The notes beneath the pieces are model-generated. The model was given only the letters and a program-made list of their open reading frames with translations. It made no database searches and was not told the DNA's origin. Shown one piece after another: positions 4,234 through 30,104 of a stretch of 64,000 nt of DNA. The stretch comes from an uncultured bacterium. GTDB taxonomy: Bacteria; Hinthialibacterota; Hinthialibacteria; Hinthialibacterales; Hinthialibacteraceae. Made by a program: the position numbers and the translations under genes. The first letter of the stretch is position 1. The number at the start of each line of letters is the position of its first letter. The DNA is taken from assembly GCA_964556895.1 (NCBI GenBank), contig CAZKYC010000001.1:29371-93370 (forward strand), read 5' to 3'.

Positions 4234-4302
4234 GGGTGTATCTCTGAGAGCGCCTGTGCTTTAAAGCCGCTGAAAATTACACTCACAAATCCAGATACAC
4301 CC
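4234..4302. repeat. Solo copy of the family-1 core hairpin, diverged. It overlaps the last codons of the gene at 4283-5356.
   Basis: ggcatgggtgtatctctgagagcgcctgtgc...cagatacaccc shares the 5' stem and the gagcgcctgtgc loop block with family 1. The 3' stem arm encodes the C-terminal residues VGVYLDL* of the minus-strand gene. Confidence 0.55.
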
Positions 4303-5356
4303 CGACGCCAACGTAGTCGCCGTCTTGGCTAAACGCAGGAAAATTCAATGGCCGCCCGTTGTAATACTCTAACAACAAGCGCAGCGCCTTGCTTCGAAAC
4401 GGCCAGTCTTTAAACTCGACGCCCGCCGTGTAGCGCTGGTTAAGTTCCCAGTCGTCTTCTTCCCAGGTGGTGAAGTGCACGCCAAACACGGGGTGAATCG
4501 ACAAATGAGACCAGGGACGGTACTCGCCGCCAAACACCATCTCAAGCGGGTCGATGTCGCCCACGTCATCAAAGATATACACCGGCCCGCCATACACCCG
4601 CCAATCGGGTTGGCTGTAAGCCAGCGTCAAGTCGACCAGGTTACGGTCAAGTTGGCGGCCCAGAATATCAAGAAACGGCGGCAGCTCGCGCACGATATGG
4701 TCGTCGCCCAAATGGCCGCTGCGGTGCATGTATCTCACCCGCGCAGTGAAGTCGTCATAGTGAAAGATGAATGGAAACCCGACCTGAAAGTCAGTGTTTT
4801 CGAGATCGCCGCCGTTTTCCATATTGAAGTGGCCAAACACGCCGCCTTCAATGTTCATCTGGACGGTCAACCCTGGCGTGAACACATTCGTCCAACGATA
4901 GAGCGGCAACACTTCGCCAAAGCCAACCACGCCCGAGTTGTCCATATCATCGCTCGCGCGGTAACTTAAAAAGAACCGCGATTCCCATGGGTCGGCGACC
5001 AGCGGCTCAAACAAATCGCCCTTGGGGAACAACCCTTCGGTCGATTCGTTGATTTCGCTCGCCCAGTCAGTTTCATTCACTTCTTCACCTTGTTGTTCAA
5101 AGCGAACAGAACGAACGCCCGGCGCGCTTTGTAATGCGTCTTGAATCTCATTGCGAATAGCCTGATCTTGTGGAGCGTTGAGAATGATAATCGCGCCGGC
5201 TTTGACGATCACGTCCGCTTTAATTTGGTGAGTGGTTTGCAGAATCGCCGTCGCGTATCCACGTAAAAACTCATCGCTGGATGACTGCTGTGAAACCGAA
5301 GAAGAACAAACCACGCCTATGGCTAGTATCATCACGACCAAATGTTTAACCATCAT
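4283..5356 (-). CDS. Secreted, likely outer-membrane-associated protein with an N-terminal BON-like domain and a beta-rich C-terminal domain.
   Basis: 357 aa. Signal peptide MMVKHLVVMILAIGVVCSS. BON-like segment IKADVIVKAGAIIILNAPQDQAIRNEIQDALQSAPGVRSV. The C-terminus is rich in aromatics and Gly. Function not assignable. Confidence 0.5.
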   Translation of the reverse strand: MMVKHLVVMILAIGVVCSSSVSQQSSSDEFLRGYATAILQTTHQIKADVIVKAGAIIILNAPQDQAIRNEIQDALQSAPGVRSVRFEQQGEEVNETDWASEINESTEGLFPKGDLFEPLVADPWESRFFLSYRASDDMDNSGVVGFGEVLPLYRWTNVFTPGLTVQMNIEGGVFGHFNMENGGDLENTDFQVGFPFIFHYDDFTARVRYMHRSGHLGDDHIVRELPPFLDILGRQLDRNLVDLTLAYSQPDWRVYGGPVYIFDDVGDIDPLEMVFGGEYRPWSHLSIHPVFGVHFTTWEEDDWELNQRYTAGVEFKDWPFRSKALRLLLEYYNGRPLNFPAFSQDGDYVGVGVYLDL

Positions 5357-23069: not shown

Positions 23070-23123
23070 TCTCAGAAACTTGGCGAGCTCGCGAAGCCGC
23101 CCACCAAGCCTGTTCAAATAAGG

Positions 23124-23381
23124 TTCTTCCGATATTTGAGTACTTCCCTTGCTGGATGACCTGGAATTTGGTCAAAAAACGATATTCATCCTATCAATAC
23201 TAGACAATCCTCCTCAGGCAAGGGTGCAACTCTGTGAGCGCCTGTGCAACAAAGCGGAGCGGCGCCGAAGCGAGTAGAGTTGTACCCATGCCAAATACAG
23301 CGATAAAAAAATCATCCTTGAAATGGTGTCTAAAAAAATTAATTCAATTTAAGAGAACGTATCCAAATCCCTGATGAGCCT
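23124..23381 (-). mobile_element. MITE-like repeat family 1, copy 1b. Full length, reverse orientation, core hairpin at 23222-23287.
   Basis: About 90% identical to copy 1a along all 258 bp. Flanked by similar 9-mers CAAATAAGG (23115-23123) and CAAATAACC (23382-23390), which I read as a roughly 7-bp target-site duplication CAAATAA. Confidence 0.75.
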
Positions 23382-23543
23382 CAAATAACCTTCAGCGGTG
23401 GGCGAACCCATCCTGCGGTGTTCCCCAGATAAATTTTCCCCGCACTCGTCGTTTTTCTGATCTCATACTATTCTACTACTGAACGAAAACATACCGCCTA
23501 ATGGCGCCAATCTTGTTACTGCTTACTGTAAATTCATAGGCTG

Positions 23544-24173
23544 ATGAAAGATCAACAAATGACAAAAATGAAATCAGGTTTTACCTTAATTGAATTGTTA
23601 ATTGTCGTCGCCATTATTGGCGTCCTCGCGGCCATCGCCGTGCCCAACTTTCTGAATGCGCAGATTCGCGCCAAGGTGGCGGCGGCCCAAAGCGACATGC
23701 GCGCGCTCGGAACCGCGCTCGAAATGTATTCACTCGACAACAACGCCTACCCGCCCTTTCGCCATGACATCAACGGCGAGTGGCGCTATAAGGGCGCGCT
23801 GGCGCGGCTGACCTCGCCAGTGTCATACATGAACACCATCCCCAACAGCGACCCATTTAATTCAGAGGCGCCATCGGCGTATGGCGGCGCAACCGACGAC
23901 GCCAATTATGGGTATACCTATGTCGATTACAAATCATTTTCGCCCAATAACTATTGGCCGTTGTGGGCCAAGCCGCTCAACATTCTGTGGGTGCTCTATA
24001 GTTTTGGCCCTGACCGCAACGATGACGTGGGCGTGGTGGCGATTGGTAAAGTGATCGGCCCGAATTTTGACATTCCCACATGGAACCCAAACCGGGTTCC
24101 CTATTCGTCATCAAATGGAATCATCTCCAACGGCGACCTCATGCGCTCCAACCACGGCGATCACAGTAAGTAG
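23544..24173 (+). CDS. Prepilin-type (GspG-like) pseudopilin paralog.
   Basis: MKSG|FTLIELLIVVAIIGVLAAIAVPNF prepilin motif. C-terminal SFGPDRNDD motif. 209 aa. Confidence 0.8.
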   Translation: MKDQQMTKMKSGFTLIELLIVVAIIGVLAAIAVPNFLNAQIRAKVAAAQSDMRALGTALEMYSLDNNAYPPFRHDINGEWRYKGALARLTSPVSYMNTIPNSDPFNSEAPSAYGGATDDANYGYTYVDYKSFSPNNYWPLWAKPLNILWVLYSFGPDRNDDVGVVAIGKVIGPNFDIPTWNPNRVPYSSSNGIISNGDLMRSNHGDHSK

Positions 24174-24298
24174 AAGTCAAGGAATTCTAAAAAAAAAAGA
24201 TAAAAAGATTGAAAAAACTAACCCACTAGATTCCTTCCTGTTCATTTACGCGTTATGTGTCTATAATTGCACAACTTGTTATATCAGCGGGGATCAAC

Positions 24299-24847
24299 GT
24301 GTCAAAAAAGAAAAACGGCTTTTGGGAAAGCCTTCGAGCGAACTATGATGAGATGCGAATCGTGTTTGTCTTTGAACATCTCCAAGAACAAGGATTTGAT
24401 TTAGACCAAATACTCCAATCAAATAATGTCTCAGACCGCATTCCACTCTTAAAAGCCTTCAAAGAATTTGAAAAACAAAAGCCTTGGTCAGATTTTGTTT
24501 TTGATAATGATGAGATATGTTATTTATTAGCGAGAATAGTAGATTATAGAGGAGTGTGTAGATTTCTTTATGATTTAGAAGACAAAAGTGTGTTAGAGCC
24601 AGATTTTAAACTTCATGAACATTCCGAAAAATATGATGACGAGAACGAGAACGACAAGTTACAGTTGCAAACAGACATAGAAAATGCTAAGAATTCTGTG
24701 AGTATTTTGTTGAAATACGAAATAATTGTAAAGAATGGAAGAAAATTTTCGTTAACTAAAGAAGGTAGAGAATCGTTTGTTAATGTACAGTATGAGAGAA
24801 TTGAAAAAAACGCAGTTCTTTCATATTGGAGGCCAAAGAAAGGATAA
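24299..24847 (+). CDS. Hypothetical acidic protein in the AT-rich islet. No recognisable domain.
   Basis: The ORF stays open from 24257. Candidate starts are the GTG at 24299, preceded by GGGGA, or the ATG at 24353. A TATAAT lies at about 24261. Composition is markedly AT-rich relative to the flanks. The C-terminal 40 aa (ILLKYEIIVKNGRKFSLTKEGRESF) loosely resemble a winged helix. Confidence 0.45.
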   Translation: MSKKKNGFWESLRANYDEMRIVFVFEHLQEQGFDLDQILQSNNVSDRIPLLKAFKEFEKQKPWSDFVFDNDEICYLLARIVDYRGVCRFLYDLEDKSVLEPDFKLHEHSEKYDDENENDKLQLQTDIENAKNSVSILLKYEIIVKNGRKFSLTKEGRESFVNVQYERIEKNAVLSYWRPKKG

Positions 24848-24852
24848 GAGCC

Positions 24853-25134
24853 ATGACAAATATCAGTCCTGATCGAATGATTGACGCTTATGGTCAGCTC
24901 ATTGAAGAAGATCCAAATTTGGTCGAATTTTTTTCCCGAATCAATGAAAAGAATACAATAAGGATACGTGATCTTGCTGGCCCTTTTCAGGATTACTACA
25001 ATGCGTTGCGTGGGTTTGGTTTTCTAGAAGCAGAAACTGACCATCTTAGCCGCGACACAAAAATAGTATTTGCTGAAACGGGGAAAAAGTTTTGGGAAAA
25101 ATACGGATCTAAAATCGAAGAGTTGCGTAACTAG
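24853..25134 (+). CDS. Hypothetical 93-aa protein in the AT-rich islet, translationally coupled to the upstream ORF.
   Basis: AAAGGA lies 8 nt before the ATG of MTNISPD. It overlaps or abuts the preceding ORF. No recognisable motif. Confidence 0.45.
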   Translation: MTNISPDRMIDAYGQLIEEDPNLVEFFSRINEKNTIRIRDLAGPFQDYYNALRGFGFLEAETDHLSRDTKIVFAETGKKFWEKYGSKIEELRN

Positions 25135-25163
25135 GAATTCATCTATATTACGACTTCTTATAA

Positions 25164-26504: not shown

Positions 26505-27611
26505 TTACCTCTTCATATTCGATTGGATCCACTGTTCACGAAACGCCTCAAAAGTTCCTTCGCGGATAGTGTGGCGGCATTTAGCCATGAACTGTTGAAA
26601 GAAGGTGATGTTGTGAAGCGAGGCCAGGCGGGAGGCGAGAATCTCGCCCGCCTGAAAGAGATGGCGCAGATAGGCGCGGCTGTAGTTTTGACAGCAATAA
26701 CAGCCGCAGTTCTCATCAATGGGCGCCTCGTCTTCACGAAACTTGGCTTGTTTTAGCGTGAGTTTTCCGCCCCAGGTGAGCAGGTGGCTGGTGCGCGCCA
26801 GCCGGGTCGGGACAACACAGTCAAACATATCCACGCCGCGATAAATCGCTTCGAGAAAATCTTCGGGCGTGCCCACGCCCATCAGATAGCGCGGCTTGTC
26901 TTTGGGCAGAATCTCATTCATGGCGTCACAGATCGCCCAGGTCTTTTCTTTGTCTTCACCGAGCATCAACCCGCCGATGGCGTACCCGGGGAAATCCAGT
27001 TGCAGCAGGTCGTTGGCGCTGCGCTCGCGCAGGTCTTGATAAACCCCGCCCTGGACGATGCCAAACAGCGCCTGGTCGTCGCGCTGGTGAGACTCGACGC
27101 AGCGCCGCGCCCAGTTGGTAGTAATCTGCACCGAGTTTCCAGCGTACTCACGAGTGGCGGGGTAGGGCGTGCATTCATCGAAGCACATAATAATGTCAGC
27201 GCCGAGGTCGTTTTCGAGTTTCATCACGCGTTCGGGGGTGAAGCGGTGTTGGGCGCCGTCGATGTGCGAGCGAAACGAAACCCCGTCATCGTCGATCTTG
27301 CGCAGCGACGCCAAGCTGTAGACCTGAAAGCCGCCGCTGTCAGTGAGGATGGGGCCGCCCCAATTCATGAACGAATGCAGCCCGCCCATCTTGGCGACGA
27401 TGTCCTGCCCGGGGCGCATGTAGAGGTGGTAAGCATTACAGAGCAATATCTGAGAGCCTGTCTCAGCGACCTCTTCGGGCGTGAGCGACTTCACGGTGGC
27501 GTTGGTGCCGACTGGCATGAATGCTGGCGTGTCGAACGGGCCGTGAGGCGTGGTGACTGTCCCCACCCGCGCTCTTTGGTCAGATTGGTGAATTTCAAAT
27601 GAAAGAGACAT
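26505..27611 (-). CDS. tgt: Queuine tRNA-ribosyltransferase (tRNA-guanine transglycosylase).
   Basis: GTVTTPHGPFDTPAFMPVGT, LLCNAYHL, the catalytic Asp region, and the Zn site CGCYCCQNYSRAYLRHL. Confidence 0.9.
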   Translation of the reverse strand: MSLSFEIHQSDQRARVGTVTTPHGPFDTPAFMPVGTNATVKSLTPEEVAETGSQILLCNAYHLYMRPGQDIVAKMGGLHSFMNWGGPILTDSGGFQVYSLASLRKIDDDGVSFRSHIDGAQHRFTPERVMKLENDLGADIIMCFDECTPYPATREYAGNSVQITTNWARRCVESHQRDDQALFGIVQGGVYQDLRERSANDLLQLDFPGYAIGGLMLGEDKEKTWAICDAMNEILPKDKPRYLMGVGTPEDFLEAIYRGVDMFDCVVPTRLARTSHLLTWGGKLTLKQAKFREDEAPIDENCGCYCCQNYSRAYLRHLFQAGEILASRLASLHNITFFQQFMAKCRHTIREGTFEAFREQWIQSNMKR

Positions 27612-27854
27612 AGCAACGTATTGTAGGGCGGGAAAAGATTTTCAGAATATGCGCGCTTCGCCGACTGAACAACAACGGGCATCTGGCCGGGTGGGCCAAG
27701 TGAACGCCCCCGCAAGTTCCAAGTGCTAACCCTCCTTACAAACGTATGAACTCTTTGAGAAACTTGGGCCTTGCGTAGAACGCTCTCGATGTCGATCCAT
27801 GCCCTTGTCCTTTTGTTCGCGGTTGAATGTAAATCCCCATATGGCCCGTAAACT

Positions 27855-28067
27855 CTATTTGGGGGGTATATCTACTGGGTCCCAGTAATTTTCTTCTATG
27901 AAGCCGGAACCGACTAGACTTCTACAGAAGGCAGGATGCTCAGTAAGCATTGCCTGAAGAAATGACTGCATTCGAGTCGCATCTTCTGGAAACTCTTCAC
28001 ATCCGGCCCATTCGTCCATTACCCTTTTTGCAATGGCAGCAGCCCAATCTTCAATAGGTTTGTTCAT
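27855..28067 (-). CDS. Small 70-aa hypothetical protein co-transcribed with the HNH endonuclease, overlapping it by 17 nt.
   Basis: Lies in the low-GC islet. It starts inside the 3' end of the HNH gene. No recognisable motif (MNKPIEDWAAAIAKRVMDEWAGCEEFPED...). Confidence 0.45.
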   Translation of the reverse strand: MNKPIEDWAAAIAKRVMDEWAGCEEFPEDATRMQSFLQAMLTEHPAFCRSLVGSGFIEENYWDPVDIPPK

Positions 28068-28653
28068 ATTGCTTCCTAACTTGCTTCAGTAGATACTCCC
28101 GAATGGGGTTTGTTTCTTCTGGTCGGGCAAAGTGGGCCATCTTATGGTGATGGGCGCACAAGACAGCGAGATTCCAAAGACCATCCTCTCCACCCAAGTA
28201 AAGAGGAATAATATGGTGAACTTCGATATATCTTTCACCGTCCGGCTTGATGAAGGTATTTTCGCAGCTGTCCATTAGGCATCGTGAACCAAGAAATTCT
28301 TTTGCCCTACTTGCCCACTGTGTTTTACGGACATAAGACTCAACAAGATACTCCTTGCGTTCAGGCGTTTCTCCAGAGATATCAAGCGTGTGTGTTTCAT
28401 CCAGTTCACTGTCCAGCCATTCAACACCCCTTAGCGTATAGCAACCGGACTTATCAAGGAATGATAGAAAGCCCTCGTCACGAAGTTCCTGTAGGAGTCG
28501 TCGAACCGTTGCCTGTGGTGTTTGTCCCCCGATACCAATGGCTTCATAATTGCCGTGTGTTTCATTGATTTGCTTGAGCGTGAAGGTTCGTGAACCTTGC
28601 CGATTGCAGAATTCCAGTACCAGGCTTTTCAATCTATCTCTTTGCCCTATCAT
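28051..28653 (-). CDS. HNH (His-Me finger) endonuclease with an N-terminal winged-helix-like domain.
   Basis: C-terminal HNH module CLMDSCEN...EVHHIIPLYLGGEDGLWNLAVLCAHHHKMAH. The N-terminal roughly 110 aa is a wH-like DNA-binding region. Low G+C relative to the flanks. RBS GGGGA. Confidence 0.8.
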   Translation of the reverse strand: MIGQRDRLKSLVLEFCNRQGSRTFTLKQINETHGNYEAIGIGGQTPQATVRRLLQELRDEGFLSFLDKSGCYTLRGVEWLDSELDETHTLDISGETPERKEYLVESYVRKTQWASRAKEFLGSRCLMDSCENTFIKPDGERYIEVHHIIPLYLGGEDGLWNLAVLCAHHHKMAHFARPEETNPIREYLLKQVRKQYEQTY

Positions 28654-28660
28654 TGGTCCC

Positions 28661-28828
28661 CTAATAACGCCGCGATATATTGAATGTAAGATAAATTAAA
28701 CAACCGCATGTCAGCTTATTCATAATTAAATTAAAGAGATCGACGCTCTCTTCTGGCAGTTGGCGCAATACATCGATGACGTTTCCGAGAAAAAGTCGGA
28801 CACCCGGCTTTTTGAAATAGGCTTCCAT
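28661..28828 (-). pseudogene. Truncated 5' remnant of a DNA (N6-adenine/N4-cytosine) methyltransferase gene.
   Basis: A 55-codon ORF, MEAYFKKPGVRLFLGNVIDVLRQLPEESVDLF-NLIMNK..., matches the conserved MTase N-terminus (hydrophobic-x-x-G-D/N-x-hydrophobic-x-x-L-x-x-L-P-D/E-x-SVDL-I-x-TDPPY). It breaks off just before the DPPY motif. An intact TATAAT and RBS AAGGAAGG lie immediately upstream. Confidence 0.55.
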
Positions 28829-29195
28829 GACGTTCCTTCCTTAACAAATTATAACAGCACCGCCATAACGGTGTTGTTGGGTTGGCCTTCTACGGCTTTG
28901 TTGACGGCGAGAGCCTGTCTGCCGCGCCAGACTGTCAAACCCATCCAAAACAACCCATTTTTGAAACTCGTGAACTCAACTTAGAGTTTTATTGGACAGC
29001 ATTGATTGCCACCAGATAATACACCAGAAATCAAAAAGAAAATAGAACGTAGATGTCAATGGAAAAGCACAATGCGATCGAAAAAGAAGAAGCAATCAGA
29101 CGTTCAAGGTTAAATTAATTACCCAAAGAAACACAATCAGAAATCTAGGCGGGCTGCTTGGCTTCGCTGGCGAGGCGGGCTATCCAACCATTCAA

Positions 29196-30104
29196 TCAAC
29201 GTTTGGCGCTTCCCTCTCGCTCTCCGTCTTTCACAAAGAACATCATGTGTTGCCAGGGCAGGTTGTCATATTGGCTGGCGAGGCGGAAACCGTTGGCGGT
29301 GAATTCTTTCATAATTTGCTTCTTGCTCATTTTGTGAAGCGGCTTGATGGGCACATCGGGGTCTTCGGCGCGGTATTCCAACAGCGCCACCCGGCCCTCT
29401 GGCTTCAGGCTGTCGCGCACCGACTTCAACATCTCTTCAGGGTGTGAAAACTCATGGTAGACATCGACCAATAAGACCAGGTCGAGCGCCCCTTTGGGCA
29501 GCTTCGCGTTTGTGGCGGTATTAACAATCGGCTTGATGTTCTCTATGCCCGCCTTTTTCGCGCGCGTCTTCAACAGGTCTAACATCTCTATCTGAATATC
29601 GACCGCAAACACCCTACCTTCTTCGCCAACCAGTTCTGCGAGTTTTAAGGTGTAGAACCCGTTTCCGCATCCCAGGTCGGCCACCGCCATGCCTGGCTTC
29701 ACGCCCAAGTTGGCGGCCACTTCTCCGGTGGCTTCTTCGCGTTCGCGCGATTCGCGCAATAGCCATTCGGCCCCGGTGTAGTGCATGGTGCGGGCGATGG
29801 CGCGCCCCATGTAATGTTTGGGGCCGGGCGCGGACGCGCCGATAATCAAGGCGCCCTTGGCGTCGGTTTTGACAACCGCATAGCGCTGGTCGATGGTTCT
29901 CACCGAGAGGACGCCAGACACGGCTTCGAGCGCGTATTTCACTGAGCCGGATTGGTTGGTTGTGATGGTCGACAGGCCGACGAAATACTCGCCGTCGACG
30001 GCGACTACCTTATGCTGCTTGCCATTGCTTTGAAAGGTCGCGGCGTTGGCTGTTACTGCGATACACACAGACAAGCCGATAACCAAAAATCGAGTCAAGT
30101 TCAT
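29196..30104 (-). CDS. Secreted/periplasmic class I SAM-dependent methyltransferase.
   Basis: Signal peptide MNLTRFLVIGLSVCIAVTANA. MTase motif I VADLGCGNGFYTL, with the post-I acidic residue in VFAVDIQ. 302 aa. Confidence 0.7.
   Translation of the reverse strand: MNLTRFLVIGLSVCIAVTANAATFQSNGKQHKVVAVDGEYFVGLSTITTNQSGSVKYALEAVSGVLSVRTIDQRYAVVKTDAKGALIIGASAPGPKHYMGRAIARTMHYTGAEWLLRESREREEATGEVAANLGVKPGMAVADLGCGNGFYTLKLAELVGEEGRVFAVDIQIEMLDLLKTRAKKAGIENIKPIVNTATNAKLPKGALDLVLLVDVYHEFSHPEEMLKSVRDSLKPEGRVALLEYRAEDPDVPIKPLHKMSKKQIMKEFTANGFRLASQYDNLPWQHMMFFVKDGEREGSAKR

Follow-up and report, generated by a model that had tools for sequence, protein, structure and literature searches.

How can the gene for an apparently complete restriction nuclease lie directly against the remains of a DNA methyltransferase gene, and what would such an enzyme cut? 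The question is raised by a small islet on the minus strand in an uncultured member of the Hinthialibacteraceae (contig CAZKYC010000001.1, positions 29,371 to 93,370; this whole stretch of 64,000 nucleotides is referred to as the window, and its first letter is position 1). An earlier note on this DNA described a winged-helix (wH)-HNH endonuclease gene, a 70-aa open reading frame (ORF) and a decayed methyltransferase (MTase) gene, and offered three ways in which a cell could survive the combination: the nuclease is inactive, it is modification-dependent (type IV-like), or it is held in check by the small protein. The locus is probably a gutted GATC restriction-modification (R-M) operon that houses a type IV wH-HNH nuclease, predicted to depend on N6-methyladenine in GATC (Gm6ATC), together with a partner protein. 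Modification dependence is the best supported of the three options, given the DpnI and EcoKMcrA profile matches, a PADLOC mREase_IV match and the GATC specificity of the displaced genes.

Remnants flanking the nuclease gene

The islet consists of four colinear minus-strand parts, namely the 5′-stump of an MTase gene (28661-28828), the wH-HNH gene (28051-28653), a small gene designated orf70 (27855-28067) and the 3′-stump of a restriction endonuclease (REase) gene (27736-27852). The first three had been recognised before, and their coordinates, lengths (55, 200 and 70 aa) and the 17-nt overlap between the last two of them were confirmed. The fourth had been overlooked, and the three-part description of the islet is incomplete to that extent.

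The 55-aa ORF is the beginning of a gene for a beta-class (DPPY-first) N6-adenine DNA methyltransferase of the kind found in GATC R-M systems. Its recognisable part is codons 1-31 (28736-28828) and the remainder is decayed. A hidden Markov model (HMM) constructed from six longer or full-length beta-class relatives, excluding the window and locus L087, was compared with 1,913 six-frame segments of the window, and its sole match was this ORF (E 2.4e-4); the alignment spans model positions 39-71 and ends just ahead of DPPY, as had been proposed. No further relative of this MTase family was found in the 64 kb with the same HMM. Among generic searches, Pfam gave nothing, phmmer against the PDB gave irrelevant matches only, and weak matches were obtained to NCBIfam 'DNA methyltransferase' (E 0.13) and to the MTase N-terminus in PADLOC MTase_II (E 0.048). 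As none of these is significant, the identification rests on the custom HMM and on homologous stumps elsewhere. The most informative of these stumps is in L087, a metagenomic locus with the same three-gene layout and a nuclease 66% identical to that of the window. Its upstream ORF of 56 aa is a beta-class MTase N-terminus that includes FADPPY and matches the window ORF with a BLASTP E value of 4e-13. Alignment of the DNA reveals that the window has lost 18 nt encoding IFADPP and that the tail of its ORF has drifted.

The remnant at the other end is the last 37 codons and the stop codon of a MutH/Sau3AI-like GATC restriction endonuclease gene. An HMM made from four MutH-like endonucleases matches the minus-strand segment 27739-27921 with an E value of 1.5e-17, covering model positions 137-173 of 176, and has no second match anywhere in the window. 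In loci L100 and L110, the gene after the orf70 homologue encodes a MutH-like endonuclease that ends in ...GHMGVYIQPRTKGAGHGSTSRAFYARPKFLAEFITI, and the small ORF just downstream of orf70 in the window reads MGIYIQPRTKGQGHGSTSRAFYARPKFLKEFIRL. MutH-like relatives in L172 and L144 match Pfam MutH. The stump MTase has full-length relatives in L136, where the next gene encodes a complete endonuclease of the DpnII family (PF04556, 2e-58), and in L144, where it encodes a MutH-like endonuclease, and this pairing indicates that the displaced genes were GATC-specific. An intact methyltransferase and an intact endonuclease, which would make up a type II GATC R-M system, are both absent from the islet, where each is present as a stump. 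The 5′-stump of one gene and the 3′-stump of the other indicate a two-gene GATC R-M operon whose interior has given way to other genes. It is near-certain that the islet is a relic of such an operon with the wH-HNH gene and its partner inside.

The same arrangement recurs. Profiles were mapped onto 86 metagenomic loci containing members of the nuclease family, and onto the window. Fragments from the 5′-end of beta-class MTase genes lie directly upstream of the nuclease gene in L087, L102, L106, L118, L129, L132, L134 and L169/L170, and end at varied model positions (72, 94, 130, 183 and 263). A truncated Dam-type (D12) MTase occupies this position in L085 (PF02086, 2.3e-26, 125 of 253 positions), and a weak D12-like match, consisting of a single tblastn match, was found there in L097. 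Downstream, 3′-fragments of endonuclease genes are MutH-like in L100, L110, L138 and the window, and a DpnII C-terminus is present in L142. In total, at least nine of the MTases directly upstream of a wH-HNH gene are truncated versus three that are intact. An intact MTase gene is missing from the vicinity of most family loci, in agreement with a published figure of 87% (PMC11037411). The endonuclease 3′-stump and the presence of the same architecture in unrelated metagenomic loci support the earlier suggestion of a degraded or remodelled restriction locus.

The predicted reader-nuclease

The 200-aa product of the intact gene is a predicted Gm6ATC-dependent type IV restriction enzyme with two domains. 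The winged-helix reader domain (aa 4-76; 28426-28644), delimited from the secondary structure of an AlphaFold2 (AF2) model and from alignment to DpnI residues 195-251, includes the recognition helix TPQATVRRLLQELRD (aa 45-59; 28477-28521). The HNH beta-beta-alpha-metal core with its Cys/His zinc site (aa 125-175; 28129-28281) was placed using the family alignment and the EcoKMcrA structure 6ghc. Pfam detects HNH at 9.5e-7, and the best PADLOC match is mREase_IV, a type IV methyl-directed restriction enzyme (2.8e-8). The family includes more than 300 homologues of about 196 aa, many with PF17726 and PF01844. Searching the PDB with a 30-sequence family profile retrieved the HNH domain of EcoKMcrA (3.9e-12), the nearest solved sequence, and the winged helix of DpnI (residues 195-251; 9.4e-6), so that the wH-like domain noted before proves, when checked for methyl readers, to be of the DpnI kind. 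In the AF2 model (predicted local distance difference test score, pLDDT, 85), the winged helix precedes a beta-beta-alpha core, and Foldseek places EcoKMcrA and ScoMcrA on top, with DpnI among the winged-helix matches.

The catalytic residues H146, H147, N161, H170 and H174 and the zinc ligands C125, C130, C166 and H169 are invariant in the 30-sequence alignment, which confirms that the HNH motif is canonical. In comparisons with relatives, the proportion of nonsynonymous differences (pN) is far below that of synonymous differences (pS). Conservation of the ORF and of every catalytic residue makes the first of the three options, an inactive nuclease, unlikely.

The wH-HNH enzymes described by Helbrecht (2024) are toxic in Dam+ but not in Dam- Escherichia coli and are mostly solitary, and adjacent MTases have been inactivated in some wH-fusion loci (PMC11037411). 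Like them, the window protein combines a DpnI-like winged helix at the N-terminus with a McrA-like HNH domain, is predicted to read methylated GATC and belongs with mostly solitary genes that occasionally have an inactivated MTase neighbour. It differs in being shorter, in belonging to a bacterial clade, in its recognition helix (TPQATVRRLLQELRD versus the DpnI-like EAKIRQQLQ) and in the conserved 65-70-aa partner gene of its clade, which is unmentioned in that study (PMC11037411).

Similar replacements are known from enzymes of another catalytic type. In Neisseria, the drg gene for a Gm6ATC-specific nuclease (NmeBII/Drg) is inserted in dam, truncating it, and has a GC content of 40.5% versus 52% (PMC4269198). 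As with drg and DpnI, the window has a low-GC gene for a predicted methyl-GATC nuclease that truncates a GATC adenine methyltransferase gene, and the winged-helix readers are homologous. However, drg and DpnI products are PD-(D/E)XK-wH proteins, whereas the catalytic domain in the window is HNH and the domain order is reversed, and what was displaced was the beta-class methyltransferase and the endonuclease of an R-M operon rather than an orphan dam. The window locus would thus be drg-like in its working but lies outside the Drg protein family. The mutually exclusive methyl-dependent and methyl-sensitive GATC systems, DpnI and DpnII, that occupy one locus in Streptococcus pneumoniae form a further parallel, except that the window retains the gene ends of the loser, showing replacement in situ. 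EcoKMcrA and ScoMcrA, which are type IV HNH enzymes, provide the closest solved HNH domains by both sequence and fold and have the same reader plus HNH architecture, but their readers recognise 5-methylcytosine or phosphorothioate and are unrelated to the DpnI-type winged helix.

The logic of the locus is therefore already known from DpnI, drg and the published wH-HNH enzymes. New are the distinct bacterial clade, the changed recognition helix, the previously unremarked conserved partner and the scars on both sides. The islet is a molecular fossil of two opposed defence strategies directed at one DNA site, in which a system that methylated GATC and cut unmethylated DNA was replaced by a predicted cutter of methylated GATC, and both ends of the losing operon can still be read. 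It extends the dam-replacing phenomenon of Neisseria and pneumococci to HNH-type enzymes in many uncultured bacteria, in which such replacements recur.

The original operon would have comprised a beta-class m6A methyltransferase gene followed by a MutH/Sau3AI-like endonuclease gene, and a two-gene cassette encoding the 200-aa wH-HNH protein and the 70-aa acidic partner would have taken over its interior. The nuclease would thereby have displaced its antagonist methyltransferase, as drg displaced dam in Neisseria. Its DpnI-like winged helix may recognise adenine methylation at GATC-type sites of incoming DNA, and the McrA-like HNH domain would then nick or cut near the methylated site. A Gm6ATC nuclease cannot coexist with a GATC adenine methyltransferase, which would account for its position in the wreck of such a gene.

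Several observations weigh against this assignment. The Pfam match of the window protein to DpnI_C ('Dam-replacing HTH') is sub-threshold (0.0014; 19.2 versus 23 bits). Residues E228, K229, R231, Q232 and Q235 of the DpnI recognition helix wall its methyl pockets (PMC3424567). They align to A48, T49, R51, R52 and Q55 in the window protein, and with two of the five kept (R51 and Q55), its specificity could differ from that of DpnI. Four of the five are kept in a sister subfamily, in which the helix is EAKIRQQLQ, and both helix types adjoin GATC MTase stumps and orf70. The archaeal wH-HNH enzymes that have been tested are longer (224-283 aa) than the window protein. In a sister sample (Logan SRR7048221, locus L002; 2551-2561), the same locus has a 165-bp in-frame deletion relative to the window. 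The polymorphic segment (28390-28565) is bounded by two 11-bp direct repeats, ATGAAACACAC (28390-28400 and 28555-28565), and the deletion between them takes out aa 34-88, the winged-helix core including the recognition helix; the nuclease may consequently be dispensable, costly or only conditionally useful in that population. The 64 kb seen is also only part of the genome, and a protecting or conflicting methyltransferase may be located elsewhere.

The remaining difficulty comes from three relatives. In L136 (1029-3576) and L144 (427-2773), intact GATC methyltransferase and restriction endonuclease genes lie directly upstream of an intact wH-HNH gene, and in L142 (1466-3682) an intact wH::MTase fusion is found beside an intact wH-HNH gene, with a DpnII C-terminal stump after the nuclease. 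Were all family members Gm6ATC cutters, these three loci would be self-destructive. With 40-45% identity, their nucleases are some of the least similar to the window protein.

These loci provide the main argument for a different enzyme, a conventional methylation-sensitive GATC restriction endonuclease that has replaced the MutH-like one while a GATC methyltransferase encoded elsewhere protects the genome. The intact gene pairs in L136 and L144 would fit, and the wH-fused intact MTase, intact wH-HNH and truncated DpnII of L142 resemble a working R-M pair. DpnII-type systems often have two methyltransferases. However, the scarcity of nearby methyltransferases in the family and the predominance of truncated ones directly upstream, as given above, weigh against such an enzyme, and the only relative of the stump MTase family in the window is the stump itself. 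The winged helix and the methyl reader of DpnI are homologous domains, and the wH-HNH enzymes tested are toxic in Dam+ cells only (PMC11037411). A conventional endonuclease is accordingly considered quite unlikely, and both the methyl-dependence and the GATC specificity of the window nuclease are, as far as sequence can tell, likely.

The orf70 partner protein

The third option, a nuclease checked by its small neighbour, turns on orf70. This gene overlaps the nuclease gene by 17 nt, has its own AGGAAG ribosome-binding site (RBS) and encodes an acidic three-helix protein with an isoelectric point (pI) of 4.4 (4.1-4.7 in the family). Homologues with 41-49% identity lie directly downstream of the wH-HNH gene in 15 of the 62 related loci that have enough downstream sequence. 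The conserved motif is AIA-R-SDEW-G--FPED---L------P--C--LIGTGIIEE-YF, and the residues invariant in the two family alignments, A2 and A3, are present in orf70. The AF2 model is confident (pLDDT 93) and has no fold match in the PDB.

A single-sequence word-indexed search with orf70 retrieved only itself, and comparison with all of Pfam-A at E≤1 retrieved nothing. Besides the nuclease gene, the DpnI cassette includes dpnD, a gene of unknown function, and Pfam-A includes the DpnD/PcfM family. A search using a profile of the locus-derived homologues yielded at least 609 proteins, nearly all of 64-67 aa, which lack Pfam domains and informative names alike. An exhaustive search also found longer and mostly unannotated proteins (such as P0254, P0341, P0253, P0266 and P0384) in which the domain is C-terminal or, in some cases, N-terminal. 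In P0254 it is accompanied by a weak Cro/C1-type helix-turn-helix (HTH), and in P0341, which is 610 aa, by a weak HATPase_c_3 match.

Six relatives on longer contigs were sampled. All six genes lie just downstream of a nuclease gene, and three nuclease types are represented; in five of the six cases, the nuclease begins with a domain of wH or HTH type. The upstream gene encodes a wH-HNH protein in L170, L181 and L182. In L172-L180 it encodes a 244-aa HARE-HTH/NmeDI_C protein, flanked by fragments of an MTase (161 aa) and of MutH. In L171, the orf70 relative follows the gene for a 325-aa NucS_C-type protein, in which a reader domain was not detected, beside an MTase gene. An unannotated family of about 65 aa that travels with nucleases of three catalytic types is a lead in its own right.

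The arrangement is reminiscent of colicins E7 and E9 with Im7 and Im9, where an HNH nuclease gene is closely followed by one for a small acidic helical protein, and the nuclease and orf70 could likewise form a toxin/immunity pair in which inhibition occurs whatever the methylation state. The gene overlap and separate RBS of orf70, the small, acidic and helical character of its family and its conservation behind three kinds of nuclease, which suggests a physical or regulatory link, are consistent with such a pair. However, orf70 resembles neither the Im proteins nor any solved structure in sequence or fold, and there is no secretion or toxin context. The gene order places orf70 after the nuclease, the orf70 domain also occurs in fusion with many unrelated N-terminal regions, and the family was not found on viral contigs. 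Above all, 47 of the 62 wH-HNH loci have no orf70. The small protein is a genuine, conserved partner, but the nuclease is evidently tolerated without it, and since most wH-HNH genes lack orf70, it is no obligatory antidote. An immunity pair is thus doubtful, and about as improbable as a conventional endonuclease. The best guess is that orf70 is a regulator, adaptor or binding partner of reader-nuclease fusions. If it does control the nuclease, it would bear on how a methylation-dependent nuclease gains a foothold while the host chromosome still carries methylation.

The position downstream of the nuclease gene is variable in content. A further ORF of about 73 aa lies between the nuclease gene and orf70 in L100 (1643-1861), L115 (1060-1296) and L110 (3548-3743). 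Proteins of about 130-136 aa have a C-terminal orf70 domain and an N-terminal extension of about 70 aa, and in the case of P0247 the extension is not obviously like the ~73-aa ORF. In eight loci (L101, L102, L106, L116, L118, L123, L163 and L164), a 119-aa PDDEXK_11-like ORF takes the place of orf70. Its start falls at nearly the same residue in all eight, and an ORF of about 85 aa precedes it in L106 and L118.

Junctions and setting of the islet

The window, L087 and L169/L170 have one common junction between the MTase stump and the nuclease gene (stump coordinates 1303-1473 in L087 and 3235-3418 in L169/L170). Between L087 and L169, the stumps share 69% protein identity, with a pN of 0.17 and a saturated pS of 0.87. 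Identities for the nuclease (57%; pN 0.31) and for orf70 (56%; pN 0.29) are both below that of the stump. The 21 junction-proximal codons encode identical protein in L087 and L169 but are alike in only 6 of the 21 third positions. In these lineages, either selection acts on the stump peptide or the cassette captured functional MTase genes repeatedly at the same codon. The seemingly selective maintenance of the stump in some lineages is a second lead. In the window the DPPY part is decayed, and any such role of the stump is therefore dispensable here.

Because the L087 and L169 stumps have a common junction, are more conserved than the nuclease and are saturated at synonymous sites, the stump, reader-nuclease and orf70 might together constitute a coherent methylase-displacing module, with an orf70-family control or establishment factor and a stump kept by selection. 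The 65-aa protein might then hold the reader domain off a still-methylated chromosome until methylation had been diluted, and the DPPY-bearing stump of about 56 aa might serve as a micro-protein or as a recombination arm targeting the cassette into resident GATC methyltransferase genes. This extended scheme is considered unlikely.

Recurrence of one junction could also be due to a selfish, homing-like HNH element aimed at GATC methyltransferase genes, with the stump as its insertion footprint. HNH is a classic homing-endonuclease fold. The identical junction in the window, L087 and L169 despite saturated synonymous sites, and in particular the 21 junction codons that differ mainly in third positions, would fit repeated capture at one codon. 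Against this, other loci are truncated at many other positions and some hold the Dam D12 MTase class, the domain make-up of the nuclease is that of type IV enzymes and not of homing enzymes, and copies in phages, plasmids or viruses were not found. A selfish element of this kind is very unlikely, and site-specific homing as a general rule was rejected, as truncation points vary between loci. That the whole islet is decaying junk, with a non-functional nuclease and small ORFs arising by chance, agrees with its two flanking stumps, the decayed tail of the stump ORF and the loss of the reader domain in the sister population, but is very improbable given a full-length nuclease ORF with every invariant family residue and pN far below pS, an orf70 with its invariant columns kept and confident AF2 models of both proteins.

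For the replaced R-M operon, expression of the cassette from what the methyltransferase gene left behind is plausible. An extended -10 element, TGTTATAAT (28848-28856), lies upstream of the 55-aa ORF and an RBS, AAGGAAGG (28835-28842), is found 6 nt ahead of its ATG; together they form a putative promoter/RBS (28835-28856, minus strand) inherited from the methyltransferase gene. These two elements bear out the TATAAT and RBS reported earlier, but a consensus scan found no full -35/-10 promoter there, the -35 being absent. The stop codon of the stump ORF is 7 nt ahead of the nuclease ATG (TAGGGGACCAATG), and the tight packing of the three genes suggests that they form one transcription and translation unit. 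The old promoter and RBS and the short stump ORF now probably drive and translationally couple the cassette genes.

The islet is bordered on one side by tgt (26505-27611) and on the other by a gene for a 302-aa class I S-adenosylmethionine (SAM) methyltransferase (29196-30104). The latter was considered as the cognate DNA methyltransferase and rejected, as it is a conserved class I SAM methyltransferase of the small-molecule type, and its sequence has an apparent N-terminal signal peptide. The stretch between the stump and this gene (28829-29195; no strand assigned) is AT-rich and non-coding, belongs by composition to the low-GC islet and has no Rfam matches or flanking repeats. Similarity between the DNA upstream of the stump in the window and that in L087 was not found. 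No tRNA, flanking direct repeat or Rfam RNA was detected in or near the islet, phage homologues were not found, and plasmid matches were at the level of the HNH domain only. Homologues of the 302-aa gene point to a planctomycete of the Pirellulales group. Their surroundings were compared in 80 Pirellulales loci; tgt, the nuclease gene and the small ORFs are missing within 6 kb in every one, and this set therefore provided no pre-insertion (empty) allele. In L106, the 5′-end of serS is duplicated, with one copy on each side of the islet (2117-2260 and 4259-4400; ∼37 codons), and a Seryl_tRNA_N match is located where the methyltransferase frame starts, which suggests an insertion with a long target duplication in that locus.

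The islet had been described as AT-rich, and its GC content over 27700-29190 is indeed 0.457, compared with a window mean of 0.534 (standard deviation 0.039 in 1.5-kb windows). Equally low values occur in 2.9% of 1.5-kb windows, and the remaining ones are all at 23.1-24.7 kb. They belong to a second patch (23100-25150), where GC falls to 0.32, lower still than in the islet, and where unannotated plus-strand ORFs of 196 aa (24257-24847) and 102 aa (24826-25134) are located amid prepilin-type genes. The observed/expected (O/E) ratio for GATC in the window is 0.78, which is ordinary among palindromes, and GATC avoidance therefore says nothing either way. AGCT is strongly depleted, with 47 occurrences versus 137 expected from trinucleotides (O/E 0.34), and GTAC has an O/E of 0.56 in the whole window; these depletions may reflect other restriction pressure on the genome.

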